This document shows, piece by piece, positions 1 to 58,171 of a stretch of DNA of 64,000 nucleotides. The notes below the pieces were generated by a model. The model did no database searches, had not been told where the DNA came from, and saw only the letters and a program-made list of their open reading frames with translations. Position numbers and translations under genes: made by a program. Position 1 is the stretch's first letter, and every line of letters begins with the position of its first letter. Source of the stretch: an uncultured Candidatus Saccharibacteria bacterium (GTDB lineage: Bacteria; Patescibacteriota; Minisyncoccia; Phycocordibacterales; DATDWN01). The stretch spans positions 34,384 to 98,383 of the forward strand of contig CAZKCA010000001.1 in assembly GCA_964551495.1 (NCBI GenBank). Reading direction: 5' to 3'.

Positions 1-342
1 ATATTTTTTTGTATAAAAAAAGCTATTAAAAAAGGTTTAGATAATTTAAATCTTGATCCAAAAAATACTCAGATACTCTTAGACGGGGGACTTAAGGCTC
101 CAGATGAATTTATTTTTCAAAAAACAATTATAAAAGGAGATGAAAAAGAAAAAATAATTGCATGGGCTAGTATTTTAGCAAAGGTAGAGAGAGATAAATT
201 TATGATTAAAATTTCCAAAAAATTTCCACATTATTTTTTTGAAATTAATAAAGGTTATGGGACAAAAATACACAGAGAAGCTATATTAAAGCATGGAATG
301 TCTGAGTTACATAGGAAGAGTTTTTGTAGAATATATTTATGA
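1..342 (+). CDS. rnhB: Ribonuclease HII, C-terminal part (5' end lies outside the window)
   Basis: Translation ends ...AWASILAKVERDKFMIKISKKFPHYFFEINKGYGTKIHREAILKHGMSELHRKSFCRIYL*. The KGYGTK(E/I)H...HR.SF tail is typical of RNase HII. The frame is open from nt 1 and the stop is at 340-342. Confidence 0.6.
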   Translation: MFFCIKKAIKKGLDNLNLDPKNTQILLDGGLKAPDEFIFQKTIIKGDEKEKIIAWASILAKVERDKFMIKISKKFPHYFFEINKGYGTKIHREAILKHGMSELHRKSFCRIYL

Positions 343-491
343 TTATGATTGCAAAACACCCTCGGTTTTTGTGAAATAAACCGCTCTTCGCTTGGCTCTC
401 GGCAAACTCGCTTCGCTCAAACAGGGCCTTCGCCTAGCGCTTATAGCTTTTATTTCAAACAAAAACCTGCGAATGTTTTGCAATCATAATC
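341..491. repeat. Family A intergenic palindromic repeat, copy A1 (reverse orientation), closed by a perfect 17-19 bp flanking inverted repeat
   Basis: Core cctcggtttttgtgaaataaa...ggcaaactcgcttcgctcaaaca...ctgcgaatgtttt is shared with the copies at 32641, 36052 and 40757. Flanks gattatgattgcaaaac (341-357) and gttttgcaatcataatc (474-490) are exact reverse complements. Confidence 0.7.
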
Positions 492-573
492 ACACTAAGC
501 ATACTTAAGTAAGTATGCGATTGATTTTTTTCAATCTTGTTTTTATTTTTATTTAATGTATACTCTCTATATT

Positions 574-5837: not shown

Positions 5838-7577
5838 ATGAATAATTTAATAGAAGAGATAAAAAGTTTTTTTAGTGGTGATGTGGAAAGTGCCGAGGAA
5901 GTTTTGGAAAAATATAGTACTGATGCAAGTTTGTTTAAAATACGCCCTCAGATTGTAGTTTTTCCTAAAAACTCAGAAGATATAAAAAAATTGGTTAAAT
6001 GGGTAGGGGAGAAAAAGGGAGAACACCCAGAACTTTCTATAACAGCTCGTGCAGCTGGGACATGTATGGCCGGAGGACCACTAAATACTTCTATTATTTT
6101 AGATACTACTAGGTACATGAATAAAGTTATTTCTGTAGAAAATACAGAAAAAAGACAAATGACTCCTATGTTTCCAAAAAGTGTTTCTGTGGAAGTTTCT
6201 GGAAAAGTGGTTGTAGAGCCAGGATGTTTTTATAGAGATTTTGAGAAAATTGTGGCAGAGAAAAACTTACTTTTACCATCTTTCACTGCTTCAAAGTCTA
6301 TAAATGCTGTTGGTGGAATGGTGGGAAACAATTCTGCTGGAGAACTCACTTTGCGTTATGGAAAAACAGAGGACTATGTCCGCGAACTTTCTGTGGTTTT
6401 TGAAGATGGAGAAGAATATGTAATAAAGCCTCTAAAAAAAGATGAGCTAGAGTCTAAAATGAATCAAGATAATTTTGAAGGAAAATTATATAAAAAGATT
6501 TTTGATTTGATAGAACAAAACAAAGATGAAATAAACTCAGCCAAACCTCAGGTCTCTAAAAATTCTGCTGGTTATACTCTTTGGAATATTTGGAATAACT
6601 CCTTTGGTGAAGAAGTTTTTGATTTGCCAAAACTTGTAGTTGGTTCTCAGGGGACTTTGGGAATTGTCACAAAAATTACTTTTGATTTGGTGGAGATTCC
6701 AAAGGCTTCAAAACTTTTGGTTATCTTTCTAAATAATCTGTCTATTTTAGGAGATTTGGTTTACGAACTTAGAACACTTAATCCACAAAGTATAGAGTCA
6801 TACGATGACAAAACTTTTGGTCTTGCCATGAAGTTTTTTGGCGATTTTCTTAAACAAAAAGGTGTTTGGGGTTCAATAAAATTTGGATTTTCTTTTTTGC
6901 CAGAGTTTTTTATGGCTTTGACAGGTGGAGTTCCAAAACTTATTTTACTTGTTGAATTTTCTGGAAACAATGAAGAAGAGATTCATCAAAGATGCTTGGA
7001 TGCTCAAAATAAAATAGAGCATTTTAAACTAAAAACTAGAGTAACAAAATCTGTTGCTGAGGCCGATAAATATTGGGCAATGAGAAGAGATAGTTTTGCT
7101 CTACTTAGAAAACACGTCAAAGGTAGGAGAACAGCTCCATTTATCGATGATATAGTGGTTAATCCAGAACACTTACCAGAATTTCTACCGAAATTAAATG
7201 ACTTGTTAGACGATTATCCTTATTTGGTATATACCATCGCAGGACACGCTGGAAATGGAAATTTTCACATAATTCCTCTGGTTGATATGAATGATGAAAG
7301 GGTTATTCCTACAGTTCTAGAGCTTTCTGAAAGAGTTTATGATTTAGTTAAAGAATATAAAGGCTCTATAACAGCGGAGCATAATGATGGAATAATTAGG
7401 ACTCCTTACCTAGGAAAGATGTATAACGAAAAAATCCTGTCTTTATTTTCCGAAGTTAAAAATATTTTTGACTCAAAAAATATATTTAATCCGGGTAAAA
7501 AAGTTGGAGCTACAAAAGATGATATAGTTAAAAATATAATTCCTCCAGATCACCCTCACCATCACCACGCATCTTAA
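5838..7577 (+). CDS. FAD-linked oxidase (GlcD / D-lactate dehydrogenase-like) with a His-rich C-terminus
   Basis: FAD_binding_4-like N-terminus (RPQIVVFPKNSEDIKKLVKWV...ITARAAGTCMAGGP). C-terminal oxidase domain. Ends ...PPDHPHHHHAS. Confidence 0.65.
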   Translation: MNNLIEEIKSFFSGDVESAEEVLEKYSTDASLFKIRPQIVVFPKNSEDIKKLVKWVGEKKGEHPELSITARAAGTCMAGGPLNTSIILDTTRYMNKVISVENTEKRQMTPMFPKSVSVEVSGKVVVEPGCFYRDFEKIVAEKNLLLPSFTASKSINAVGGMVGNNSAGELTLRYGKTEDYVRELSVVFEDGEEYVIKPLKKDELESKMNQDNFEGKLYKKIFDLIEQNKDEINSAKPQVSKNSAGYTLWNIWNNSFGEEVFDLPKLVVGSQGTLGIVTKITFDLVEIPKASKLLVIFLNNLSILGDLVYELRTLNPQSIESYDDKTFGLAMKFFGDFLKQKGVWGSIKFGFSFLPEFFMALTGGVPKLILLVEFSGNNEEEIHQRCLDAQNKIEHFKLKTRVTKSVAEADKYWAMRRDSFALLRKHVKGRRTAPFIDDIVVNPEHLPEFLPKLNDLLDDYPYLVYTIAGHAGNGNFHIIPLVDMNDERVIPTVLELSERVYDLVKEYKGSITAEHNDGIIRTPYLGKMYNEKILSLFSEVKNIFDSKNIFNPGKKVGATKDDIVKNIIPPDHPHHHHAS

Positions 7578-9561: not shown

Positions 9562-9990
9562 ATGTTAAAAATCAGATTACAAAGATTTGGTAGAAAGCAC
9601 GAACCTGTTTTTCGTGTTGTTTTGACTGATTCTAAAAACTCAACAAAGAGTGGAAAGTTTCTAGAAACATTAGGAAATTATGATGCCAGAAGAGGTGAGC
9701 AGTCTGTAGTGAATTCAGACAGGATAAATTATTGGGTATCTAAAGGGGCCCAACTTTCTGATACAGTTCACAACCTTTTAATTACAAAGAAAGTTATAGA
9801 AGGTAAGAAAATCAATACTCTTCCTAAAAAAAGCCCCATTGTTAAAGAAGGGGAAGCTACTGCTAAGGTAGAAAAAGAAACTTCTCTTCCTGTAGAAGAA
9901 ACAACTCCTGTAGAGGCAGAAGCAGAAGTTTCTGTAGAAGTTGCAGAAGAAGTTAAAGCAGAGCCTGTGGCAGAAGAAACTACTGCTTAA
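9562..9990 (+). CDS. rpsP: 30S ribosomal protein bS16 with an acidic Glu/Ala/Val-rich C-terminal extension
   Basis: MLKIRLQRFGRKHEPVFRVVLTDSKNSTKSGKFLETLGNYD is a canonical S16 N-terminus. The tail is EAEAEVSVEVAEEVKAEPVAEETTA. Confidence 0.85.
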   Translation: MLKIRLQRFGRKHEPVFRVVLTDSKNSTKSGKFLETLGNYDARRGEQSVVNSDRINYWVSKGAQLSDTVHNLLITKKVIEGKKINTLPKKSPIVKEGEATAKVEKETSLPVEETTPVEAEAEVSVEVAEEVKAEPVAEETTA

Positions 9991-10452: not shown

Positions 10453-10576
10453 TTATAATTATCATTTACATAATTTTTAATTATTTTTCTATAAAGTATT
10501 GCTAACTAAAAACTTCTTTCTCCTCATCACAATTTTAGAGCACGCATAAATTTCTGCTGAAAAATCGCTGGGTCTT

Positions 10577-10655
10577 CCCTTACAGGGACTGTACACCTTT
10601 CACATTTGATTACAAATGCTCAAGGTCTTGCGAAGCTATAACATAGCTTCTCACT
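10577..10655. repeat. Family C intergenic repeat, copy C1
   Basis: A ~79-nt stretch (cccttacagggactgtacacctttcacatttgattacaaatgctcaaggtcttgcgaagctataacatagcttctcact) is essentially identical to 35790-35868. It contains the perfect hairpin gaagctat-aaca-atagcttc. Confidence 0.7.
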
Positions 10656-10800
10656 ACCCGCCTACGAAGTTCCTAAAATTGTAATAAGTCAACGAAGTTT
10701 TTAAAAAAGAGTGAGAAACAGGCTCTCTGTGGTTTTAGGAATAAAAATTACCTATACTTTTTAATAAAAATGTGGTATAAATATACCACATTTTTATTTT

Positions 10801-28154: not shown

Positions 28155-28964
28155 GTGATAGAATTATATCTCATGACACCATTTGAGGCAATCATACTCG
28201 GCATAGTTCAAGGAGCAACAGAATTTTTACCAGTTTCTTCTTCGGGACATCTTATAATTGCAAGATCAATACTTAACCTTCCTTTGGAGTATTCTCTTAG
28301 TTTTGATGCAATACTTCAGTTTGCTAATGTAATAGCTTTGGTAATTTATTTTTGGAAAGATATATTTAAAATTTTTGTAACAATAGTTCGTTCTGTTTTT
28401 GGTATATATGTAAATAAAGAAGATAAGATTTTGGCTTGGTCTGTAGTCTTAGGAACTATACCGGCTGTTATAATAGGACTTGTTATAGAGTCTTATATGG
28501 ACACAATTTTTAGAGATGTTTTTTTGGTGGCAGTTTCTTTAGTCATCGGCAGTTTTGTTATGTTTTTTGCACAGAAACTTGGTAAGCAAGATAAGCCTCT
28601 TTCTTTGGGTAGGGGACTTGTTATCGGACTTTTTCAAAGTCTAGCTTTAATCCCTGGTATCTCTCGTTCAGGAGCAACAATTTCAGGAGGGCTTTTGGCT
28701 GGTCTTCCTAAAAACGAAGCAGTTAGATACAGTTTTGTTTTATCAATACCAATTTTACTTGGTTCTGGGGCTAAAAAACTTTTAGAAATAGATGTTTTAA
28801 ACACTTCTTTTGGAATAGATCTTTTGATCGGTTCTCTAACTTCATTTTTTGTTGGACTTTTGGTAATTCACTACTTTATAAAGTATATGAAAAACCACAA
28901 TCTAAACATTTTCATATTTTACAGAATCGCTTTAGCAATTATCTTAATTATAGCCTTATTTTAA
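28155..28964 (+). CDS. uppP: Undecaprenyl-diphosphatase
   Basis: UppP/BacA motifs (GATEFLPVSSSGHL, PGISRSGATISGG). Confidence 0.85.
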   Translation: MIELYLMTPFEAIILGIVQGATEFLPVSSSGHLIIARSILNLPLEYSLSFDAILQFANVIALVIYFWKDIFKIFVTIVRSVFGIYVNKEDKILAWSVVLGTIPAVIIGLVIESYMDTIFRDVFLVAVSLVIGSFVMFFAQKLGKQDKPLSLGRGLVIGLFQSLALIPGISRSGATISGGLLAGLPKNEAVRYSFVLSIPILLGSGAKKLLEIDVLNTSFGIDLLIGSLTSFFVGLLVIHYFIKYMKNHNLNIFIFYRIALAIILIIALF

Positions 28965-29004
28965 GACATATTTTTACCATAGACAAAAATACAACAAAAT
29001 TTGC

Positions 29005-29033
29005 TTGACAAACAATTTATAGTGTGCTAAGAT
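29005..29033 (+). promoter_or_regulatory. Near-consensus sigma70 promoter driving the orphan RNA at 29040
   Basis: TTGACA (29005-10), a 17-nt spacer, then TGc-TAAGAT (extended -10, 29028-33). Confidence 0.55.
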
Positions 29034-29039
29034 TAATAG

Positions 29040-29408
29040 TAGATAGGGAAGTCTTGTTGGTTCTCTCCCCATCACAGAGCGCGCTCGATGTTCGAGAATC
29101 AACAGGCCCAAGGTTTCGTTTCCCGGAGACCGAAGGGTTGTTAGTTTTGACAGGGATGAGTCTGGGATAGCGGGGTACCGGCACCCAGACAAATTAACAG
29201 GCCTCCTCGACAATACCGCGACAGCGTTTTTCCGGATAAAAACCCCGGGGCGCTTGGTTTAGAGGAAGATATGATCAGTGAGTGCAATGCATGGCAGACA
29301 CTGGGAGAAGACTAGTTCGTTCGTCCCACCGTCCAGTGTGTCGCACAGCTGATCCGGCCGGTTATCCGGCCAAACACGGCAGGGCGGGTTTCCTTCGGGA
29401 TCCCGCCC
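29040..29408 (+). ncRNA. Unclassified GC-rich structured RNA (~370 nt), orphan between uppP and a convergent gene
   Basis: GC content is much higher than the surroundings and no plausible ORF is present. A promoter lies upstream. The 3' end has the intrinsic terminator gggcgggtttccttcgggatcccgccc+TTTT. Confidence 0.5.
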
Positions 29409-29442
29409 TTTTACTTTTAAAATAAAAAAATATAGAAAAGAA

Positions 29443-29485
29443 ATTTTGTTTTAGCTAAAAATCTGCGAATGTTTCAAAAAGTTGT
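29443..29485. repeat. Truncated family A repeat fragment (terminal ~40 nt)
   Basis: ttttgttttagctaaaaatctgcgaatgttt matches the reverse complement of the 5' end of copy A5 (aaaacattcgcagatttttagctaaaacaaaagc). Confidence 0.5.
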
Positions 29486-29510
29486 TTTTTTAAAGTATAT
29501 GAAAAATAAG

Positions 29511-29662
29511 AATCTCTGAAACAACACCTTTCTAGAGACTCCACAGCTTTTGAGCATGGTTCCGTCAAGGCGCCCCTTCTTGACTGATCAAAAGCGAGGA
29601 CTGCTGAACAAACTCGCAGGAGTTTGTGAGGGTGCTCTAGAAAGGTGTTGTAGAGGAGATTT
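29511..29662. repeat. Family B long imperfect-palindrome element, copy B1 (ERIC-like, likely a structured RNA)
   Basis: An 18-bp perfect closing stem (aacaacacctttctagag / ctctagaaaggtgttgt) extends to ~28 bp with an internal loop. Internal hairpins cgtcaag...cttgac and acaaactc-gcag-gagtttgt are present. A homologous copy lies at 32821. Confidence 0.7.
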
Positions 29663-29678
29663 TTCCCAAACTAAACTA

Positions 29679-30260
29679 TTAAAACAAACTTTGAGTTTTT
29701 ATTTCCAGGACAGGCTCCCAGTGTTTTGTATCCAATTTTATTTCTTTGGTGAAAGGCCCTTCTTTGAAAATAAGTTTTTTATTTTTCATTGCATACTCGT
29801 AAACATCTTTTGTAATTTTTACATCATCTAGACAGTATTTTCGTATTTTATCTATTTCTCCTTGTTTCCACCATGCAACAGCTTCCAAACCATTTCCGCT
29901 TTTATGTATTCCAAAAGTCCCTTCAGCTATCTGATCTAGTTTCATCCTACGTCCGTAGGTGTTTTTTATTTCTTTCAAAATATCAAGAGACCTTATTTGA
30001 TTTAGATCTCCTAAGCCTGCTTTTTTGTAGTATTTGTTTAAAAGAGGGATATCGAAATGATCGCCATTATAGGTAATAAGCATATCTGATTTACTTATTA
30101 TTTCCCACATAGAGGGGAATTCTTCTTGGGTAAAACTTTTATAAGAATCTGATTCATAATCATAAAGTCCCACAATAGAAATATCCAAGTCAACAGGATC
30201 ATTGGACCCAACATCTTGGAATATATTTTTTGTCTCGATATCAAATACAATTTTTCGCAT
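29679..30260 (-). CDS. DEDD-family 3'-5' exonuclease (RNase H-like fold)
   Basis: Exo motif I (FDIET); the rest of the fold assignment is inferred. Confidence 0.55.
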   Translation of the reverse strand: MRKIVFDIETKNIFQDVGSNDPVDLDISIVGLYDYESDSYKSFTQEEFPSMWEIISKSDMLITYNGDHFDIPLLNKYYKKAGLGDLNQIRSLDILKEIKNTYGRRMKLDQIAEGTFGIHKSGNGLEAVAWWKQGEIDKIRKYCLDDVKITKDVYEYAMKNKKLIFKEGPFTKEIKLDTKHWEPVLEIKTQSLF

Positions 30261-31546
30261 TATTCTGTCTTTTTTATTAATTCAACTATCCCTGATATTG
30301 GTAGTTTATTTTCTGTTTCTGATTGGAGGTGTTTTATTGTATAAGAATCACTTTTTATTTCATCTTCACCAATAGCAAGAAAGTAAGGTATTTTTTGTTT
30401 CAGGGCTAATTTTATCTGATCACCTATTTTTTTGTTTGTTAAATTTACAGTGACATTTATACCTTCTGATCTTATAGCACTAGCTATATATTCAGCATTT
30501 TGTATAAAGTCTTCGTTTATAGTTCCTATAAATAGCTGACAATTTGATTTGTATTCTGGTAATAAATTGTGTGTTTCCAAAAAGTCTTTTACTGTTACAT
30601 CTCCAGCACCAAAACCAATAGCTGGGACTTTTTGTGCTCCAAAAATATCCAAAAGGTCATCATACCTTCCTCCTCCAAAAATAGATCGATTGTTTTCTGG
30701 AGAAGTGTCAAAAACTTCAAAAACTGTTCCTGTATAATAATCAAAACCTCTCATTAGTGTCGGATCAAATTTTATATTTTTTATACCATTTGCTTCTAGT
30801 TTTTCTATAAGTATGACTAAATCTTCTACGTTTTTATTTGATACTCCCAAAGTATTTAACAAAACTTCGTTTGAAGATATTAATCTAATAAAGTCATCAG
30901 TTTTATCTCCTAGTATTTCTTCTAGACTTGTTCGGAAAGTGTCTTCACTTATCTTATCTTTTTTATCTATTATTTTTGATAATTTGTATGATTTATCCTC
31001 ATCTAATGAAAAAAGATTGTATAAATCTTTCATTAGTTTTCTACTATTTAATCTAATAACAAAATCTTCTTCTTTTGCTCCGAAGTTTTTCATTATTGTA
31101 TAGGCGATTTTTATTATCTCAACATCAGCATCTTTAGATTCAACACCAAACAGGTCAACATTTAATTGCCAGTGTTCACGAAGTCTTCCTTTTTGAGGTT
31201 TCTCATATCTAAAGAGGTTTGGTATAGAGAACCATTTAATAGGAAAAGGTAGTTCTTTTACTTTGGCTGCTATCATTCTTGCAACAGTTGGGGTCATCTC
31301 TGGTCTTAAAGTAACCTCTCTTTCACCTCTGTCTAGGAAAGTATAAGTTTGTTCATTCACTATTTCTTCACCAGATTTTGCTCTGTATAATTCAGCTGAC
31401 TCTAGTATTGAGGCGCTGTATTCTTCGTAACCAAAAGATTTTGCGGTTTTTTTCCAGGTTTCAAATATGTAGTTTAGAACAAACATATCTTCTGGGTAAA
31501 AATCTCTTACCCCTTTATAACTTTCGGTACTTATTTTTTGTGACAT
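30260..31546 (-). CDS. hisS: Histidine--tRNA ligase
   Basis: Class II aaRS motifs plus the HisRS-specific GGRYD-type motif (IFGGGRYDDL) and an anticodon-binding domain. Confidence 0.85.
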   Translation of the reverse strand: MSQKISTESYKGVRDFYPEDMFVLNYIFETWKKTAKSFGYEEYSASILESAELYRAKSGEEIVNEQTYTFLDRGEREVTLRPEMTPTVARMIAAKVKELPFPIKWFSIPNLFRYEKPQKGRLREHWQLNVDLFGVESKDADVEIIKIAYTIMKNFGAKEEDFVIRLNSRKLMKDLYNLFSLDEDKSYKLSKIIDKKDKISEDTFRTSLEEILGDKTDDFIRLISSNEVLLNTLGVSNKNVEDLVILIEKLEANGIKNIKFDPTLMRGFDYYTGTVFEVFDTSPENNRSIFGGGRYDDLLDIFGAQKVPAIGFGAGDVTVKDFLETHNLLPEYKSNCQLFIGTINEDFIQNAEYIASAIRSEGINVTVNLTNKKIGDQIKLALKQKIPYFLAIGEDEIKSDSYTIKHLQSETENKLPISGIVELIKKTE

Positions 31547-31599
31547 GATAGATAAAGTATTAATAAAATGATAGACTTCTTTGTAAGTTTAACTAAAAA

Positions 31600-32358
31600 A
31601 TGACCAATATACAAGAAAAAGGGATACATTTGGTATATAAGAATCTTGGAGAAACACCGAAGGAGTGTATAGATAGATACAAAGAGAATAACTTAGAAAT
31701 AAAAGATATTCCTTTGACTTATGTTGGAAGACTTGATCCAATGGCTGAAGGACTTTTGATTTTTATAGAAAGCAACCTTTTACAAAAAAGAGGGGAATTT
31801 TTATCTTTGCCAAAAACTTATGTTTTTGAAATTTTATGGGGTTTACAGACAGACACAGGGGATGTTTTGGGTATGATTGAAAATGAAAAATTAAAAGTTC
31901 CAACGGAAGAACAAATAAAGAAAGTTTTAGACAAAAATTTAGGAGAATTTAGTCAAAAATATCCAATTTATTCTTCAGAGCCAGTAAAGGGTAAACCACT
32001 TTTTGTTTGGGCAAGAGAAGGAAAGGTTTCTGAGATAGAAATACCAGAACATGTAGTTTCTTTATATGAAGCGAAATTTTTAGAAAGAAGAGAAATTACT
32101 CCTTTGGATTTGTTTGAACAAATAAAAGAAAAAATTTCCAAAGTTAAAGGTGATTTTAGACAAGATGAGATAATTTCAAAATGGCAAGATGTTTTAAAAG
32201 ATAAAATACAAAACTTAGTGATAGACAAAATAGAAGTATCTGTCAGTTCTGGGTTTTATATAAGACAGTTTGTTCCGGATTTGGCGGATTCTTTAGGAAA
32301 CTGTGCTCTAGTTAACCACATTATCAGGACAAAAGTTGGGGATTACCAGTTGTTGTAA
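31600..32358 (+). CDS. truB: tRNA pseudouridine synthase (TruB-like)
   Basis: Catalytic-Asp motif YVGRLDPMAEGLLIF (TruB GTLDPxAxG). Confidence 0.6.
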   Translation: MTNIQEKGIHLVYKNLGETPKECIDRYKENNLEIKDIPLTYVGRLDPMAEGLLIFIESNLLQKRGEFLSLPKTYVFEILWGLQTDTGDVLGMIENEKLKVPTEEQIKKVLDKNLGEFSQKYPIYSSEPVKGKPLFVWAREGKVSEIEIPEHVVSLYEAKFLERREITPLDLFEQIKEKISKVKGDFRQDEIISKWQDVLKDKIQNLVIDKIEVSVSSGFYIRQFVPDLADSLGNCALVNHIIRTKVGDYQLL

Positions 32359-32640
32359 TTTTTTTTAAAAAGTGGTATTTATATAAATAGGAAAGGAAAA
32401 GTTTTTGGCAACTTTCAATCCGGATATCCAATTTTTTGCGAGGGATCTCTTCAATTTTGATGAAGAGAGGAAGGAGGAAAAAAGGATTCGCCGAGCAAAG
32501 AAGCCAAGCCGAAGTCACGAGGGGACCGAAAGGAAACCCCCTCGGAACCGTCCGTGCTACCGCGCACGATAGACACAAGCCCCCACATACGTGGGGGCTT
32601 TTGAATATATAAACAACAAGAGACAAATAATTTATCATCG

Positions 32641-32760
32641 TCCTCGGTTTTTGTGAAATAAAGCACTCGAAGCTGGCCTCTCGCCAAACTCGCTACACTC
32701 AAACATGCTCCAGACTTACTTTATTTTCGTCGTTGTTTTCTAATATCCTGTGCAATGTTT
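32641..32760. repeat. Family A repeat, copy A2 (reverse orientation; variant end ctgtgcaatgtttt)
   Basis: cctcggtttttgtgaaataaagcactcgaagctggcctctcgccaaactcgctacactcaaaca... is near-identical to the core of A4 (36052-36175) in reverse. Confidence 0.7.
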
Positions 32761-32820
32761 TGGGAAATAGTGTTTTATTATTAAATTTAATATTACTAAT
32801 TTATAATTATTTACAGTTTT

Positions 32821-32977
32821 TTTAATCTCCGAAACAACAACTTTTCTGGAGACTCCACAGCTTTTGGGCATGGTTTCGTCAAGGTATTCCTTCTTGACGA
32901 ACCAAAAGCGAGGACTGCCGAACAAACTCGCAGGAGTTTGTGAGGTTGCTCCAGAAAAGTTGTTGTGGAGGAGGTTA
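32821..32977. repeat. Family B element, copy B2
   Basis: Homolog of B1. The closing stem is acaacaacttttctggag / ctccagaaaagttgttgt. Three substitutions or indels relative to B1 are each mirrored in the opposite arm. Confidence 0.7.
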
Positions 32978-32985
32978 AATCGTAT

Positions 32986-34767
32986 TTACTTCTTAAAAAC
33001 CTTCTTTCTTAACCTTACAGACTTTGGAGTTATCTCTATGTATTCATCTTCAGCCATTATCTCCATGGCTTTTTCTATGTCTAATTTATAAGCAGGGGCA
33101 AGGAAAATTCCATCATCAGACCCAGAGGCACGCATGTTTGTAAGTTGTTTTCCTTTTATAGGATTTACTTGCAAATCATCTCCTTTAGAAACATTTCCAA
33201 TAACCATTCCTTCATAGACTTCCATACCAGGTTCTACATATAAAGTTCCTCTTTGTTGCAAGTTGTCTAGAGCAAAAGCTAAAACTTTTCCTTTCATCAT
33301 TGAAACCATAGATCCCAAATGACTTCTTTTTATTTCTCCAGCATAAGGTCTAAATTCTATAAACCTACTTGAAAGTATTCCTTGACCTTTTGTGTCTACG
33401 ACAAACTGTCCTCTGTAGCCCAAAAGTCCTCTAGTTGGTATTTCAAAAATAACTCTCTGAGTTGTATCTTCTTGTTTTATGTTTGTTATGATCCCTTTTC
33501 TACTAGTCAGTGTGCTTATCACAGCACTTGCAAGTTCATTTGGAACATCTACTATAACCTCTTCAAAAGGCTCAAGTTTAATTCCATTTTCTTCTTTTAT
33601 AATTACTTGTGGTTGAGAAACTTGAACTTCATATCCTTCTCGTCTCATGTTTTCTAGTAGGACAGCAATATGAAGCTCTCCTCGTCCATACACAGCAAAA
33701 CCTTCTTTAGTACCAGCAAACTCTCCTTTACTTTCAGGATTCCAATCAACTCGGAGGCCAACATTAACTTCAAGTTCTTTTTCCAATCTTTCTCTTATCT
33801 GTCTTCCTGTTACAAATTTCCCTTCGGTTCCAGCAAAAGGGGAGTCGTTTACTAAAAAGTTTAGAGAGATTGTTGGTTCATCTATCTTAATTGTTGGCAA
33901 AGGTTCTGTCTCAGGATCTTTGCAAATAGTGTCTCCAATATATATAGTCGGAAGTCCAGCGATCATAACAATATCTCCAGCAGTTGCCTCAGGGGTCTCT
34001 ACTCTTTTTGTTCCTTCAAATGTAAATATTTTTGTTATTTTTCCACTAACTGTTTCTGTATTGTGTTGTTTAAAATAAATTTGCTCACCTACTTTTACTG
34101 TTCCTTCGTATACTCTACAAATAGCCATTCTTCCTAAGAAATTATCGTAAGCAAGGTTAAAGGTTTGAAGTTTTGCCGGAGCATTTATGTCTCCGTTTGC
34201 TACTGGAACTTTTTCTAGGATTGTATCAAGTAGGGGAGTTAGATCTTTTGAATCTTCATCAAGTGTTCTTTTTGCTATTCCGTCTCTTCCAATAGCATAT
34301 ATAGTAGTGAAATCTATTTGGTGGTCATTTGCTCCAAGCTCTAAGAAAAGCTCCAGAACCATTTCGTGGACAGCGTCTGGTCTTGCAGCGGGTTTGTCTA
34401 TTTTGTTTATAACAACAATTGGCTTTAGTCCAAGTTCAAGTGATTTTTTCAAAACAAATCTTGTTTGAGGCATCGGCCCTTCTTGAGCATCTACCAAAAG
34501 CAAAACATCATCAATAGAACGAAGAACTCTTTCTACTTCAGATCCAAAGTCAGCGTGACCTGGTGTGTCCACTATGTTTATTTTTGTATCTTTGTAGTAG
34601 ATAGAAGTATTTTTAGCATAAATAGTGATACCTCTTTCAAGCTCTAGTGCATTAGAGTCCATTGTTGTCCCTTCCTCGGACATTCCTGTCTGACGCATCA
34701 AAGCATCGGTAAGAGTTGTCTTGCCGTGGTCTACGTGAGCTATGATCGCTATGTTTCTTATTTCCAT
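32986..34767 (-). CDS. typA: Translational GTPase TypA/BipA
   Basis: NIAIIAHVDHGKTTL, DTPGHADF, NKID G-domain motifs plus EF-G-like domains. 593 aa. Confidence 0.9.
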   Translation of the reverse strand: MEIRNIAIIAHVDHGKTTLTDALMRQTGMSEEGTTMDSNALELERGITIYAKNTSIYYKDTKINIVDTPGHADFGSEVERVLRSIDDVLLLVDAQEGPMPQTRFVLKKSLELGLKPIVVINKIDKPAARPDAVHEMVLELFLELGANDHQIDFTTIYAIGRDGIAKRTLDEDSKDLTPLLDTILEKVPVANGDINAPAKLQTFNLAYDNFLGRMAICRVYEGTVKVGEQIYFKQHNTETVSGKITKIFTFEGTKRVETPEATAGDIVMIAGLPTIYIGDTICKDPETEPLPTIKIDEPTISLNFLVNDSPFAGTEGKFVTGRQIRERLEKELEVNVGLRVDWNPESKGEFAGTKEGFAVYGRGELHIAVLLENMRREGYEVQVSQPQVIIKEENGIKLEPFEEVIVDVPNELASAVISTLTSRKGIITNIKQEDTTQRVIFEIPTRGLLGYRGQFVVDTKGQGILSSRFIEFRPYAGEIKRSHLGSMVSMMKGKVLAFALDNLQQRGTLYVEPGMEVYEGMVIGNVSKGDDLQVNPIKGKQLTNMRASGSDDGIFLAPAYKLDIEKAMEIMAEDEYIEITPKSVRLRKKVFKK

Positions 34768-35728: not shown

Positions 35729-35761
35729 CAATAAAATAAAAACAAAACATATTTTTAAAAA

Positions 35762-35785
35762 CCCGCATAAAACCATCTGATTACA
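35762..35785 (+). terminator. Rho-independent terminator
   Basis: aaccatctg-atta-cagatggtt followed by TTTT. Confidence 0.55.
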
Positions 35786-35789
35786 GATG

Positions 35790-35868
35790 GTTTTTGCTAT
35801 CCCTTACAGGGACTGTACACCTTTCACATTTGATTACAAATGCTCAAGGTCTTGCGAAGCTATAACAT
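35790..35868. repeat. Family C intergenic repeat, copy C2
   Basis: Near-identical to 10577-10655. Confidence 0.7.
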
Positions 35869-35917
35869 AGCTTCTCACTCGAATATAAAGAAAACAATCT
35901 CCTCAATACGTAGTCTT

Positions 35918-36002
35918 TCGCAAACTCGGCAAAAAGCCTCAAACATGCTCAAGACTTACTTTATTTTCGTCATTGTTTTCTAATATCCTGTGCAATGTTT
36001 TT
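35918..36002. repeat. Family A repeat, truncated copy A3 (reverse orientation, ctgtgcaatgtttt end)
   Basis: ctcaaacatgctcaagacttactttattttcgtcattgttttctaatatcctgtgcaatgttttt matches the distal half of A2. Confidence 0.6.
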
Positions 36003-36035
36003 AAAAATATGTTTTGTTTTTTTGTTTAGTCCAAA

Positions 36036-36193
36036 TCAAAAGCACACTAATAAAAACATTCGCAGGTTTTTGACTGAAATAACAGCGAGAAGCGCCAGCC
36101 GGAGACACTGTCTGAGCGTAGCGAGTTTGGCGGGAGGCCAGCTTCGAGTGCTTTATTTCACAAAAACCGAGGACGTTTTTAGTGTGTGCTTTT
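36036..36193. repeat. Family A repeat, copy A4 (forward) with copy-specific flanking inverted repeats
   Basis: Core aaaaacattcgcagg...gcgagtttggcgggaggccagcttcgagtgctttatttcacaaaaaccgaggacg. Flanks aaaagcacacta (36036-47) and tagtgtgtgctttt (36180-93) are reverse complements. Confidence 0.7.
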
Positions 36194-36254
36194 GACTTCA
36201 TTTTACCAACCACAACTCTCGTGATAGAATAAGTTCCGTTAATAATTAATTTGA

Positions 36255-39772: not shown

Positions 39773-39868
39773 TGTGTAAAAAATACGGTCTATTGACAAA
39801 AAAGCTTGTTTTATGTAGGTTTATGGCGTTGCCCAAGAGGGCACAGGTTCTTTGAGAGAGGTGATGTA

Positions 39869-40660
39869 GTGCGAAATCTCGCAATCTTGCTTGTACTTTT
39901 CTGCTTTGTCCTTTTGGGCAACGCAAATGTCATCACCCCATCTTTTGATGGGGCACCTGCTGGTGGATGGGTCACGGACCGTTACCAACCCAATGTATTC
40001 GCAGATATCGGCTCTTTTCAGGGCCGAAGCGACGTTCTCCAAATCGGCATCAACGCTGCTCAGGGAATGGGCAACCGTCTTTCTGGCCAGAACGGTCAGT
40101 TCTACAATACACAGGGTATGCAGTACCTTGTGTCGGGTGGAGTTGGGTCATCCATCTCAGCTGATCTGTGGATCCCGGAAGAGTGGCGAAGCGAGCTGAA
40201 TGGTTCGCGGCGGACCGACATCTGGGGAATCATGACTGATGGTACAAATGTCACAGGGTACCTCATTTTGGGATTCACCAATTATGGAGGGACTCCAACC
40301 TTCAGGGCGTGGGAAGATACTGTTGGCAGTTGGCAGATTCTCGCCAATCCCATCCAATATAATGCATGGAATACTCTTGCGATTGTCTTTCAAGGCACTT
40401 CGTATGAGTTCTATGTAAATGGATCTTTGGCCTGGACAGATAACACAGTCAATGGATCTACCGGGTTCCGAGGCCTGATCATGCAAGCCTACAACTTCAA
40501 CGGGGATGGCTCCCTTAACGCCGTCACCGCAAATGGGACAGGGAATTACTCTGCTCATTGGGCTAATACGTCCGAAGTCCCTGAGCCGGGCACAGTTCTT
40601 CTTTCTGGTCTTGGTCTTCTGGCCCTCGGCCTCTGGCGTCGGCGCCAGCAAAGGCAGTGA
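39869..40660 (+). CDS. Secreted PEP-CTERM sorting-domain protein (high GC, likely horizontally acquired)
   Basis: GTG start after an AGAGAGG Shine-Dalgarno. Signal peptide RNLAILLVLFCFVLLGNA. The C-terminus VPEPGTVLLSGLGLLALGLWRRRQQRQ is a PEP motif, a TM helix and an Arg-rich tail. GC is ~55% against a ~33% genome. Confidence 0.7.
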   Translation: MRNLAILLVLFCFVLLGNANVITPSFDGAPAGGWVTDRYQPNVFADIGSFQGRSDVLQIGINAAQGMGNRLSGQNGQFYNTQGMQYLVSGGVGSSISADLWIPEEWRSELNGSRRTDIWGIMTDGTNVTGYLILGFTNYGGTPTFRAWEDTVGSWQILANPIQYNAWNTLAIVFQGTSYEFYVNGSLAWTDNTVNGSTGFRGLIMQAYNFNGDGSLNAVTANGTGNYSAHWANTSEVPEPGTVLLSGLGLLALGLWRRRQQRQ

Positions 40661-40705: not shown

Positions 40706-40740
40706 TTACTTAAAATATTCTTCAACCTATTACAATCAAA

Positions 40741-40895
40741 AATAAAACAACTCTCAAAAACATTCGCAGATTTTTAGCTAAAACAAAAGCGAGGAACGCC
40801 AGCCGGAGACACTGTCTGAGCGTAGCGAGTTTGGCGAGAGGTCAGTGACGAGCGCTTTGTTTTATAAAAATCGAGGACGGTTTTGAGTGTGTTTT
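40741..40895. repeat. Family A repeat, copy A5 (forward) with flanking inverted repeats
   Basis: Core (40757-40880) aaaacattcgcagatttttagc...gccagccggagacactgtctgagcgtagcgagtttggcgagagg...tcgaggacgg. Flanks aaaacaactctcaaaa and ttttgagtgtgtttt are roughly complementary. Confidence 0.65.
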
Positions 40896-40905
40896 ATTTG
40901 CTCCT

Positions 40906-47352: not shown

Positions 47353-47354
47353 TG

Positions 47355-51691: not shown

Positions 51692-52399
51692 TTATATCAC
51701 GACTATCATTAGTGAATTTGTGTCGGAGACATATATATAATCACGGCTTTCTCCTTGTATAAATCTAGGATTTTGACCTTTGTATATTGGCATAAAGTTT
51801 TTTAAATCATCCTGATCATAAACGTCTATTGCGTAGACCCCATCTTCTGTTCCAAAAATCAACACGTCAGTCCTGTTTTTATAAAACTCAACATTTCTAA
51901 TTTCTAGCAAGGGTTTTATAACAACTATTTCTTCATTATTTTCTTTAAAAATTATTTCATTTTCTTCTGATACCCAAACAGATATCTCCTCAAGTCTAAG
52001 AGGATTTTCTTCAGTAGGTTTTTGTTTGCTTTGTATTTTTTGAATAATATCTAAATATTGGTTATCGTTTTGAGTGATTATTTGCCCAGATGGACTTTGA
52101 CTAATTAGAAATGGTTTCAAAGTTATTTCTTTTTTATTTTCTATATTTAGATTTTTTGTCCACGGGAAATAACCTTCTTTTGTAACAATGATTTCATTTT
52201 GACCATCTTTTAGTTTGGTAAAAAATGTTTTTTCAGTAGGAGTAATTAAATTTTCTCTGTTGATTATTATTTGAGATCCATCCAACGGCAATTCAATTTT
52301 AATTTCTGTTTTTTGATTTAATGTGAAATTATAAATGACGAGTAATAAAGATATAATCACTCCGCCTATAAAAATGTATTGTTTTGATTTATTACTCAT
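51692..52399 (-). CDS. Hypothetical signal-anchored secreted/membrane protein
   Basis: Start is taken at the internal Met (MSNKSKQYIFIGGVIISLLLVIY), because the longer ORF is antisense to the mreB 5' end. Confidence 0.4.
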   Translation of the reverse strand: MSNKSKQYIFIGGVIISLLLVIYNFTLNQKTEIKIELPLDGSQIIINRENLITPTEKTFFTKLKDGQNEIIVTKEGYFPWTKNLNIENKKEITLKPFLISQSPSGQIITQNDNQYLDIIQKIQSKQKPTEENPLRLEEISVWVSEENEIIFKENNEEIVVIKPLLEIRNVEFYKNRTDVLIFGTEDGVYAIDVYDQDDLKNFMPIYKGQNPRFIQGESRDYIYVSDTNSLMIVVI

Positions 52400-52421
52400 A
52401 TCGGCTATTATATTACTACAT

Positions 52422-53435
52422 ATGGGTATTTTTTCAAAAAAACTAGGAATTGATCTTGGTACGGCTAACACTTTAGTCTTTTTGCCTGGAAGGGGAGTGG
52501 TATTAAATGAACCTTCCGTTGTGGCTGTTTCCGAAGAAGACAATAAAATAATGGCTATAGGTATAGAAGCCAAAAATATGATTGGCCGAACTCCTGAAAG
52601 TATAATTGCTTATAGACCAATGAAAGATGGGGTTATAGCAGATTATCGCGTAACCGAGGCAATGCTTAGATACTATATAGACAAAGCTTTAGGAAAATGG
52701 AATTTTATTAAGCCAGATGTTTTAGTATCTGTCCCAGCCGGAGTAACTTCAACGGAAAGGAGAGCTGTTATAGAAGCAGCAATAAGAGCGGGGGCTAAAA
52801 ATGCTTATGTAGTGAAAGAACCAATTCTTGCTGCTATTGGTGCAGGGATTCCTATTCATGAACCAGTTGGTCACATGATCGTAGACATAGGAGGTGGAAC
52901 AACCGATGTGGCCGTTATTTCTTTGGGAGGTATTGTTTCTTCTACTTCTGTAAAATGGGCTGGAAACAAAATTGATCATTCTATCGCAGATTACATAAAA
53001 AAAACTTTTAATTTGGGAATCGGGGATAAAACAGCTGAAGATATAAAAATAAAGATAGGATCAGCAATACCATTAGATGAGGAACTTGTTATTACCATAA
53101 AAGGAAGAGACTTTATCACAGGTCTACCTAGGAGTGTGGAAATAAAAACTAATGAAGTTGTAAAAGCTATTAGTCGGGACTTAAGAGAAATGATAAAAGC
53201 AATAAAAGATGTTTTGCAGGAAACCCCCCCAGAGTTAGCTTCAGATATAATAGATAAAGGTATAATAATGACTGGAGGAACAAGTCAGCTTAGAAATTTT
53301 CCAGAATTAGTTTTTAGAAGAACTGGAGTTAAGGCTCAGTTAGCCAAAGATGCATTATATTGTGTCGTCAAAGGAACAGGTATTGCTCTCAATCACTTAG
53401 ATACTTATAAAAAGAGTATTATTTCAAAGAGATAA
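52422..53435 (+). CDS. mreB: Rod shape-determining protein MreB (paralog 1)
   Basis: GIDLGTANTLVF, actin-fold phosphate and adenosine motifs (DIGGGTTDVAVIS, GGTSQLRN). Confidence 0.85.
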   Translation: MGIFSKKLGIDLGTANTLVFLPGRGVVLNEPSVVAVSEEDNKIMAIGIEAKNMIGRTPESIIAYRPMKDGVIADYRVTEAMLRYYIDKALGKWNFIKPDVLVSVPAGVTSTERRAVIEAAIRAGAKNAYVVKEPILAAIGAGIPIHEPVGHMIVDIGGGTTDVAVISLGGIVSSTSVKWAGNKIDHSIADYIKKTFNLGIGDKTAEDIKIKIGSAIPLDEELVITIKGRDFITGLPRSVEIKTNEVVKAISRDLREMIKAIKDVLQETPPELASDIIDKGIIMTGGTSQLRNFPELVFRRTGVKAQLAKDALYCVVKGTGIALNHLDTYKKSIISKR

Positions 53436-57100: not shown

Positions 57101-58171
57101 ATGTCTGTAATGGTTGCAAATCTAGAACAATTTAAGAAATTTCTTTCAAACGATATAGGTATTGATCTTGGTACTGCCAATACTTTAGTCTATGTTAGAG
57201 GTAAAGGAATTATAATAAACGAACCATCTGTTGTTGCAATAAATCAAAAGACCGGCCAGGTAGTGGCTGTTGGAACTGATGCAAAAAATATGCTAGGCAG
57301 AACACCTGGGCATATTATCGCTGTTAGGCCTTTGGTGGATGGAGTTATTTCAGACTTTGAGGTTACAGAAGAAATGATGACTTATCTTCTGAGGAAAGCT
57401 GAAAAAGATAATAAAAAATTAATGGGCCCTAGGGTTGTTGTGGGTGTTCCTTCTGGTATTACAAATGTTGAGATAAGAGCTGTTAGAGACGCCACAAAAA
57501 ACGCTGGAGCATCAGAAGTATTTATTGTTGAGGAACCAATGGCTGGAGCCATAGGAATAAGATTACCGGTTTTGGATCCGGTTGGTAATATGGTTATAGA
57601 TATAGGTGGAGGGACATCTGATATTGCTGTTATATCTTTAGGTGGATTAGTTAGGTCCAAAAATTTAAGAATTGCTGGTGATAAACTTAATCAAGATATT
57701 ATTTCTTATATAAGAAGTGAATTTAAAATTTTGATAGGTGAAAAAACTGCAGAAAATATAAAAATATCTATAGGTGCCATTTTAAGTGGAGCTACTCCTT
57801 TAGAAGCATCTATAAAAGGTAGAGATTTGATTTCTGGTTTACCTAGAGAAGTTATTGTAACCGATGCTGATATTAGAGAAGCTATTTCTCAGTCTATAGA
57901 CATATTGGTTGAATCAACAAAAGAAGTACTAGAAACAACTCCACCAGAAGTTTTGTCAGATGTTATGCAAAGAGGTATTCATTTAATCGGTGGAGGAGCT
58001 TTGATCAAAGGTTTACCTGAACTTATTTCTGAATACACAAAGATTCCTACTCACGTAGCTCAAGATCCTTTAACTGCAGTTTGTCGAGGAACTGGTATGA
58101 TAATAGAAAATTTAGAGACCTACAAAGATGTTTTAATTGATAAGGAAGATGAATTACCACCTAAAAAGTAA
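57101..58171 (+). CDS. mreB: Rod shape-determining protein MreB (paralog 2), first gene of mreBCD–PBP2
   Basis: GIDLGTANTLVYV, DIGGGTSDIAVIS and GGGALIKG motifs. Confidence 0.85.
   Translation: MSVMVANLEQFKKFLSNDIGIDLGTANTLVYVRGKGIIINEPSVVAINQKTGQVVAVGTDAKNMLGRTPGHIIAVRPLVDGVISDFEVTEEMMTYLLRKAEKDNKKLMGPRVVVGVPSGITNVEIRAVRDATKNAGASEVFIVEEPMAGAIGIRLPVLDPVGNMVIDIGGGTSDIAVISLGGLVRSKNLRIAGDKLNQDIISYIRSEFKILIGEKTAENIKISIGAILSGATPLEASIKGRDLISGLPREVIVTDADIREAISQSIDILVESTKEVLETTPPEVLSDVMQRGIHLIGGGALIKGLPELISEYTKIPTHVAQDPLTAVCRGTGMIIENLETYKDVLIDKEDELPPKK

Follow-up and report, generated by a model that had tools for sequence, protein, structure and literature searches.

A candidate family of non-autonomous palindromic repeats with a strand-specific three-way-junction fold in intergenic spacers of a Paceibacterota clade

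The DNA considered here, referred to below as the window, is a stretch of 64,000 nucleotides (64 kb) from contig CAZKCA010000001.1 of an uncultured bacterium of the candidate phyla radiation (CPR). Homologues of its TypA assign it to Patescibacteria/Paceibacterota (Parcubacteria, Minisyncoccia). It is AT-rich (GC about 32%), has a housekeeping gene content and carries two copies, B1 and B2, of an imperfect palindrome of about 160 nt, designated element B, the second of which comes to within 6 nt of the stop codon of typA, a convergent gene. Both copies had been noticed in an earlier note made from the letters of the sequence, and a repeat search of the window finds them at the same positions, as an ungapped direct repeat of 121 nt (29526-29646 versus 32840-32960, 88% identity) enclosed by inverted arms of 30 nt in B1 (29508-29537 and 29635-29664) and of 31 nt in B2 (32821-32851 and 32949-32979), with 97 nt between the arms in each case. 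The two copies are 87-88% identical, and their likeness begins and ends exactly at the ends of the hairpin, the flanks being unrelated. When the window was shuffled 100 times, a core 26-mer of B was never matched by chance, and scans with the core motif and with a covariance model find no B copy in the 64-kb window beyond B1 and B2. The coordinates of these copies and of related elements, both in the window and in loci fetched from relatives (designated by L numbers), are collected in Table 1.

Table 1. Element B, its short relative D and hairpins of family A in the window and in related genomes (positions without an L number are those of the window; MFE, minimum free energy)
Feature	Position	Strand	Remarks
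B1, complete element	29508-29664	+ (sense)	Inverted arms and direct repeat; MFE structure; covariance-model score 176 bits
B1 outer helix, 5' arm	29508-29517	+	Pairs with 29655-29664, two G·U pairs included; MFE structure
B1 GA-rich 3x3 internal loop	29518-29520	+	GAA versus AGA at 29652-29654
B1 main closing helix, 5' arm	29521-29537	+	17 perfect pairs with 29635-29651
B1 P2 arm	29540-29600	+	UCC/GGA, unpaired GCAUGGU, apical hairpin; placed via ungapped 3314-nt offset from B2
B1 P3 arm	29603-29632	+	Hairpin CAAACUC-GCAG-GAGUUUG at 29609-29626
B2, complete element	32821-32979	+ (sense)	Direct repeat; MFE structure; covariance-model score 179 bits
B2 outer helix	32821-32830 / 32970-32979	+	MFE structure
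B2 internal loop	32831-32833 / 32967-32969	+	MFE structure
B2 main closing helix, 5' arm	32834-32851	+	18 perfect pairs with 32949-32966
B2 three-way-junction core	32854-32946	+	P2 arm 32854-32914, P3 arm 32917-32946
B3	L001:6108-6270		21-mer pattern match, JGI metagenome
B4	L002:11784-11945		Downstream of typA, syntenic with B2; contig reached via TypA homologue
B5	L002:3440-3598		Contig reached via TypA homologue
B6	L020:2133-2296	+	Between pgk and HIT gene, third relative
D copy in truB	L012:12344-12464	Antisense to gene	In-frame insert of 30 amino acids
D copy in mnmA	L012:7644-7763	Sense to gene	In frame, about 33 extra amino acids
D2	10509-10703	-	D-type arms, interior replaced by module of about 100 nt; covariance model 23.7 bits, E 6e-4
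A1	340-492	-	Perfect 18-bp closing stem, sequence unrelated to A2 and A3 stems
A2	36030-36200	+	Rod-shaped; internal loop with TCGCAGG on one side and CGAGGAC on the other; in bPH-enolase spacer
A3	40735-40900	+	In spacer equivalent to that of B5 in L002
Family-A variant	32639-32782	-	74-80% identical to A2 and A3 by blastn; lies 38 nt upstream of B2
Truncated family-A end	29444-29491	-	16 nt upstream of B1; blastn 89.6% over 48 nt to A3
Composite element	35733-36026	.	30-bp closing stem around 80-nt module and a family-A-like half

On the + strand, B1 folds with an MFE of -69.4 kcal/mol (z -5.9) and B2 with one of -81.0 kcal/mol (z -9.7), 0 of 200 shuffles folding as well in either case; for the - strands the values are -61.0 (B1) and -68.8 (B2) kcal/mol. 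The B unit is built, from the outside inward, of some 10 bp of outer helix, a GA-rich 3x3 internal loop, a perfect helix of 17-18 bp and a three-way junction, whose two inner arms are P2, a long arm with a conserved unpaired GCAUGGU, and P3, a short hairpin. The junction strands are ACUCCACAG, CGAGGACUGC, with its CGAGGAC, and UGAGGG, and P3 is flanked in all copies by CGAGGAC upstream and UGAGGG downstream. Regarding the internal loop, which reads GAA/GGA in B2, its position is retained in B2 and B4, a GA-rich loop is equivalently placed in B3, in B6 and in the copies of D (a shorter element described below), and B5 is devoid of it. The long closing stem described in the earlier note is a rod of about 30 bp; its 6S-like option has to be corrected, the interior being the three-way junction with P2 and P3 and not a central bubble of the 6S type.

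Four more B copies can be found in three related Paceibacterota metagenome genomes, so that six copies are available from four genomes and five loci. A 21-mer, by which B3 was reached, has 0 matches in 185,579 GTDB representative genomes and in IMG/VR and one in the JGI metagenomes, namely B3 itself. The contig with B4 and B5 (L002) belongs to JBAYWK01, a Candidatus Paceibacterota whose TypA is 88% identical to that of the window, and with a relaxed 19-base pattern the B4 and B5 sites are the sole two in this whole GTDB representative genome; one further match of the relaxed pattern, in a metagenome-assembled genome (MAG) of Clostridia, was set aside as chance (14.9 bits on a partial match). 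In relatives with a TypA identity of 81-82%, no B is present within the 13-22 kb examined. INPHARED, PLSDB and IMG/VR gave no match either, and a phage or plasmid origin was dropped; nor did B1 match any of 5,426 complete E. coli genomes by blastn (word size 11). The family, found in a few related ultra-small bacteria, is narrow in range and low in copy number, with about two B per genome. The termini AAAATCTC/GAGATTTT (AATCTC/GAGRTT in B1 and B2) are found in B1, B2, B3 and B6, whose ends follow the form (AA)AATCTC...GAGATT(TT), and are absent from B4 and B5, the ends of which are unrelated but self-complementary (GGCTTTT/AAAAACC and ACCACTA/TAGTGGT). Within genomes, B1 and B2 are 87% and B4 and B5 91.5% identical, versus 75% for B2 and B4, the syntenic pair between genomes, and the locus of the second B copy differs from genome to genome.

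The three closing-stem differences between B1 and B2 listed in the earlier note are each mirrored on the other arm: an additional A in the 5' arm accompanies an additional T in the 3' arm, ACC->ACT goes with AGG->AAG, and TAGAG->TGGAG with CTCTA->CTCCA. Two more mirrored changes lie in the inner P2 arm, and the outer pairing is indeed extended, by different yet complementary bases of the outer helix (AAG...UUU in B1, UUU...AAA in B2). For the wider comparison, the copies were aligned with MAFFT, structure-blind, and consensus pairs were taken from RNAalifold. With five copies, 59 pairs are predicted and 92.5% of their cells are paired, versus 84.4% for 500 shuffles, none of which attains the observed value, the proportion falling to 36-48% when the partners are slid by 1-3 columns; changes on both sides are seen in 23 of these 59 pairs. 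Once B6 is added, double-sided compensatory changes occupy 18 of 54 pairs, two of them brought by B6 into the P3 hairpin, which was invariant before. The stem covariation is real and is strengthened by the copies from other genomes; the pairing is kept by mirrored changes.

The pairing also has a direction. In the union of pairs predicted on either strand of the six copies, G·U cells outnumber A·C cells by 29 to 5, and the sense strand is the more stable by 5.6-15.3 kcal/mol in six of six copies and by about 10 kcal/mol in the alignment consensus. The B fold is demonstrably strand-specific, and the + strand of the window is the folding strand. Covariation for a specific fold on one strand, as expected of a structured RNA, is thereby found, in few and related copies and with the caveat of palindromic DNA, the arms of which can be co-converted by template switching; this process, however, would not yield the G·U excess.

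The B covariance model also matches, over their full length and with E values of 2e-9 to 3e-4, shorter elements designated D, which have the junction strands, the GA loop and the termini in common with B; in several copies the termini are identical, as is the case for UGAGAAAGAGAUUUU in B3 and in the D copy of L014 at the same site, the spacer between rpmB and an M50 gene. Judged from these sequences, D is a shortened homologue of B. Two D copies of one relative (L012) lie inside coding genes for tRNA modification, truB and mnmA, and the conserved domains of TruB and MnmA run on in frame on both sides of the insert; residues 154-194 of this MnmA have no counterpart in solved MnmA structures. 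The two copies have near-identical cores, with a compensatory G-C to C-G swap, and outer arms that differ and are self-complementary. Intron-like excision at the RNA level was considered for them and rejected, since they stand in opposite orientations and both keep the frame open, which argues for translation through the insert. In the window itself, the arms of D2 are 81-91% identical to the D copy at L014:3275-3410, and a segment of 80 nt is 100% identical at 10576-10655, inside these arms, and at 35800-35879, 25 kb away, which suggests that this internal module was recently transferred or converted between loci. A further covariance-model match, at 6203-6351 (19 bits), is inside a FAD-oxidase gene and shows no feature of the element, and was treated as chance.

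Hairpins of another family, A, are rod-shaped and about 160 nt long, with cores 75-82% alike and closing stems of 17-19 bp that are unrelated in sequence between copies and self-complementary in each. Their internal loop sets TCGCAGG opposite CGAGGAC, two motifs that are also found in B; CGAGGAC occurs six times in the window, and five of these sites are inside elements of A and B. The proposal that A and B are modules of one composite system can be kept in part: they are linked by the two common motifs, by adjacency and by interchange at the same spacer, but they are separate elements whose sequences cannot be aligned with each other. Nesting and mosaics occur as well, since D arms are found around a foreign 80-nt module and elements adjoin one another, and in B4 and B5 near-identical cores are combined with outer arms that are unrelated yet self-complementary. 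Beside the D copy in the rpmB-M50 spacer of L014, at 9735-9865, there is a further hairpin family, 'E', with the closing stem CCATCTCGGTATATGTTTTCTGAAAAC / GTTTCAGAAAACATATACACTCGATGTGG.

The occupants of a given spacer vary among relatives. Downstream of typA, the window and L002 carry B, L004 (TypA 89%) carries family-A elements and L005 (95%) carries D; after the terminator of the PEP-CTERM gene, A3 in the window is matched by B5 in L002. The pgk-HIT spacer holds B6 on the + strand in L020 and D on the - strand in L014, and the rpmB-M50 spacer has D1 together with B3 in L001, D in L014, L017 and L018, and is empty in L020-L022. Between the bPH and enolase genes, 530 nt of elements in the window correspond to 62 nt in L002. 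The gene pepF, present in L002-L004, is replaced in the window by a GC-rich RNA-like island, the family-A fragment and B1. At the DNA level, the spacers between genes have gained and lost copies, and copies have been duplicated and exchanged for others there; B copies have been homogenised within genomes while the pairing was preserved and one folding strand preferred.

Two features of these spacers are observations in their own right. The island at 29005-29420 (+), a GC-rich stretch of about 380 nt (47-58% GC, MFE z -5.2) that sits where relatives carry pepF, is furnished with a TG-extended promoter (TTGACA-17-TAAGAT) at 29005-29033 and, at about 29383-29420, with an intrinsic terminator; nothing in Rfam matches it, the fetched loci contain no homologue, and it is a candidate structured RNA. 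Between truB and typA, a GC-rich RNA-like gene of about 200 nt with a strong terminator is found in the window (32395-32606, +) and, 74-75% conserved and in the same position, in two relatives (L002 12016-12222 and L004 2471-2695). Its only Rfam match is driven by the terminator (BSnc120 at E 0.008), and it may be a conserved, unannotated small RNA (sRNA). In two more distant relatives (L011 11971-12297 and L009 11643-11930), the typA-truB spacer has a GC-rich open reading frame (ORF) of 95-108 amino acids on the opposite strand together with GC-rich non-coding sequence, and the hairpin elements are absent.

With a confidence a little better than even, B can be read as the long subfamily within a superfamily of palindromic repeats, non-autonomous and lineage-specific, similar in kind to the Rickettsia palindromic elements (RPE), to ERIC (the repetitive intergenic consensus of enterobacteria) and to MITEs (miniature transposable elements with inverted repeats), new for CPR and belonging to one Paceibacterota clade. 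Several points weigh against it. The six B copies are related by descent, and the covariation counts are not independent events; conserved unpaired nucleotides in the junction and loops, together with a strand-specific fold, are what is expected of a functional RNA. In-frame coding insertions are known for D only and in one genome, and peptides derived from B and D, compared with 5.8 billion proteins, matched only the MnmA of L012, with no further hosts. For B itself there is no clean pair of filled and empty sites at nucleotide resolution, and no direct repeat that could be a target-site duplication flanks B1, B2, B3 or B6, the 'TA' beside B2 and B6 being uninformative at 32% GC. The 64-kb window encodes no transposase, reverse transcriptase or integrase, and no parent insertion sequence with matching ends is present in the window or in the fetched loci. 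The copy number would be very low for a MITE. Finally, B2 and B4 share their position and orientation beside typA in genomes whose TypA are 88% identical, and could represent a vertically inherited gene.

If B is such a repeat, selection would act on the single-stranded form of its sense strand. The folded species may be an RNA, made by read-through or local transcription, with the 30-bp stem as a putative substrate of RNase III, or else a single-stranded DNA (ssDNA) intermediate of spread. Spread itself would require that the conserved junction and motifs be recognised by a factor whose gene lies elsewhere, and gene conversion between copies would homogenise the cores. A bolder version, which we regard as rather improbable, is that the core of B and D, and perhaps that of A by virtue of CGAGGAC and TCGCAGG, is a new self-spreading structured nucleic acid, i.e., a three-way-junction RNA or ssDNA recognised by a CPR protein, or a Paceibacterota-specific ribozyme or protein-binding RNA. 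Should the self-spreading core prove true, it would constitute a new mobility mechanism, which copies the core alone and leaves the flanks to turn self-complementary.

The step from covariation to a gene for a transcribed structured RNA, which the earlier note had taken, is not secured, considering that it is the bare hairpin that is duplicated, without a shared promoter, amid the turnover, nesting and in-frame insertion of a selfish palindrome. In its explicit form, this explanation makes B a family of stand-alone structured sRNA genes, trans-acting or protein-binding, with two paralogues per genome kept alike by gene conversion and with D as a shortened paralogue. It would account for the strong covariation in all helices and the conserved unpaired junction and loop nucleotides, for the one-strand G·U excess, for the presence of two copies in each of two genomes and for the common position and orientation of B2 and B4 beside typA; a plausible TTAAGA-18-TAATAT promoter ending 6 nt before B5, a hand-read TATAAT box 12 nt before B2 and a small hairpin with a U-run after B4 can be added to its credit. 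However, no promoter or flank is common to the B copies, a consensus scan finds no promoter upstream of B1 or B2, and the -10-like boxes read by hand near B are not conserved between copies. The typA site carries A or D instead of B in relatives with TypA identities of 89% and 95%, the copies of different genomes do not sort by similarity into two orthologous pairs, homologous D copies stand inside coding sequences in both orientations, and there is neither an Rfam family nor more than a very narrow phylogenetic range. We consider this explanation unlikely. B is not read as an ordinary sRNA gene because of the likeness within genomes, the lack of a shared promoter, the varying spacer occupants, the homology with D and the nesting, and it is probably not a stand-alone housekeeping sRNA gene.

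A role in cis has also to be weighed, in which B would be a domesticated RNA element at the 3' ends of genes, either a hairpin against read-through or a site cut by RNase III that sets the ends or stability of mRNAs, as with Correia and ERIC. RNase III substrates include stems of 27-30 bp. Those of B are of this length, an RNase III is encoded at 1793-2482, five of the six copies lie between convergent genes (for B1, B2, B4 and B6 the distance to a stop codon was read, and is 6-36 nt), and on the sense strand B1, B3 and B6 are followed by 4-5 consecutive U; precedents are available (PMC10969869). Yet the co-oriented upstream genes or RNAs already possess intrinsic terminators of their own before B1, B2 and B5, no U-run follows B2 or B5, the strand that would be present in the 3' untranslated region of typA or of the exonuclease gene is the antisense one, which folds worse, B3 is in a 5' region, and a terminator has no need of a conserved three-way junction. 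We regard this role as rather improbable. As for explanations confined to the DNA, quasipalindromes are known to mutate by template switching, and quasipalindrome correction of this kind, or conversion from arm to arm, would keep closing stems near-perfect (17-18 bp) in spite of 13-25% divergence between copies and would suit the self-complementary but unrelated outer arms of B4 and B5 and of the two L012 D copies, whose cores are 91-100% identical. Template switching yields Watson-Crick pairs on both strands, however, and leaves unexplained the 29:5 excess of G·U, the advantage of 5.6-15 kcal/mol of one strand and the conserved unpaired junction nucleotides. The other variant of this explanation, a recombination site of the attC type, finds at the ends of B no GTTRRRY/RYYYAAC boxes, and around it housekeeping neighbours, no cassette array and no integron integrase. 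A purely DNA-level palindrome is a highly improbable account of B.

Several known identities were compared with B. The window at the gathering threshold and positions 28900-33100 at E<=10 gave no 6S match in Rfam and only noise (MIR7533, CRISPR-DR47, MIR841 and the BSnc120 terminator match), and the only tRNA found by ARAGORN in the window is a tRNA-Asn at 47354. The suggestion of a 6S-like RNA, based on the architecture, has not survived this comparison. A divergent 6S RNA, or another known RNA missed by the models, would superficially agree with the length of about 160 nt and the long closing helix, but a 6S RNA matches RF00013, opens at its centre into a bubble that resembles an open promoter, and comes from a conserved gene, single or dual, under a promoter of its own; B shares none of these traits. 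With a three-way junction inside, two or more copies at non-conserved loci and relatives inside coding genes, this explanation is effectively refuted. Self-cleaving ribozymes (hammerhead, twister, pistol, hatchet and HDV-like) gave no match at E<=10, and the junction strands have no CUGANGA...GAAA. A coding peptide was rejected, the ATG in B1 opening 10 codons, not being retained in B3 and standing in a different frame in B2; long open frames through B do exist. A repeat pair of a diversity-generating retroelement was likewise rejected, as a reverse transcriptase is missing and the copies do not differ specifically at adenines.

The label 'ERIC-like', also offered in the earlier note, was right in kind, B being an intergenic imperfect-palindrome repeat. 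MITE-like repeats of bacteria are known for intergenic clustering, for mutual insertion, for in-frame fusion in the case of RPE, with 44 coding insertions in R. conorii, and for processing of co-transcribed copies by RNase III or RNase E (PMC10969869). RPE resemble B and D in being palindromic repeats of 100-150 nt in a reduced genome, located in spacers and in frame in housekeeping genes (for D only, in L012), with open frames through the element in both orientations and, as for B, no known associated transposase. B is at most an analogue, its host being a CPR bacterium of another phylum; it is far less numerous, with about two B and a few D per genome, and it differs by its conserved three-way-junction core and strand-specific fold. 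ERIC, or the intergenic repeat unit (IRU), is imperfectly palindromic, measures about 127 nt, occurs in intergenic regions that are transcribed and is variably present between strains, and the palindrome, the intergenic location and the variable presence are seen in B; a co-transcribed ERIC has its effect on the RNA, in which it exposes a site for RNase E (PMC10969869). The two have no sequence match (B1 by blastn against complete E. coli genomes, with about 30 ERIC copies each), and ERIC is a simple rod with 30-700 copies per genome, unlike the branched core of B. The Correia or NEMIS elements of Neisseria and the pneumococcal BOX, RUP and SPRITE are, like B, short non-autonomous inverted-repeat elements that cluster and nest, and the long stems of Correia/NEMIS are cut by RNase III when transcribed (PMC10969869). 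Correia elements number more than 100 copies, have defined terminal inverted repeats of 26 bp and duplicate a TA target, whereas for B neither a target duplication nor a conserved terminal repeat present in every copy was found. In the same way, B departs from a classical MITE, in which all copies share terminal inverted repeats, since B4 and B5 differ.

The genomes of CPR, or Patescibacteria, are regarded as streamlined and repeat-poor, and no description of palindromic repeat elements in CPR was found in the searchable literature. The Paceibacterota clade considered here carries a modular hairpin population (B, D, A and others), with spacer turnover, nesting and in-frame insertion into truB and mnmA, in parallel to the still unexplained Rickettsia palindromic elements, which likewise come from reduced genomes. 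Because of its strand-specific fold and conserved junction, the B family is a tractable second system for the study of how such elements spread and how their fold is maintained. In practice, B-like elements are prone to be mis-called as small ORFs or 'novel sRNAs' and to inflate annotated proteins, and they mark recombination-prone spacers in MAGs. Their interest would be greater if the three-way junction were an active RNA, or if the pattern of identical cores with complementary arms reflected a new insertion mechanism.

Two minor observations concern other parts of the window. At 39826-39924, near the 5' end of the PEP-CTERM gene (39806-40660), there is a 21-nt inverted repeat, 86% complementary, the arms of which are 57 nt apart. 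Two MreB paralogues (52335-53435 and 57101-58171), 4.7 kb apart, are 73% identical over 97 nt at their 5' ends, which looks like an ordinary duplication.

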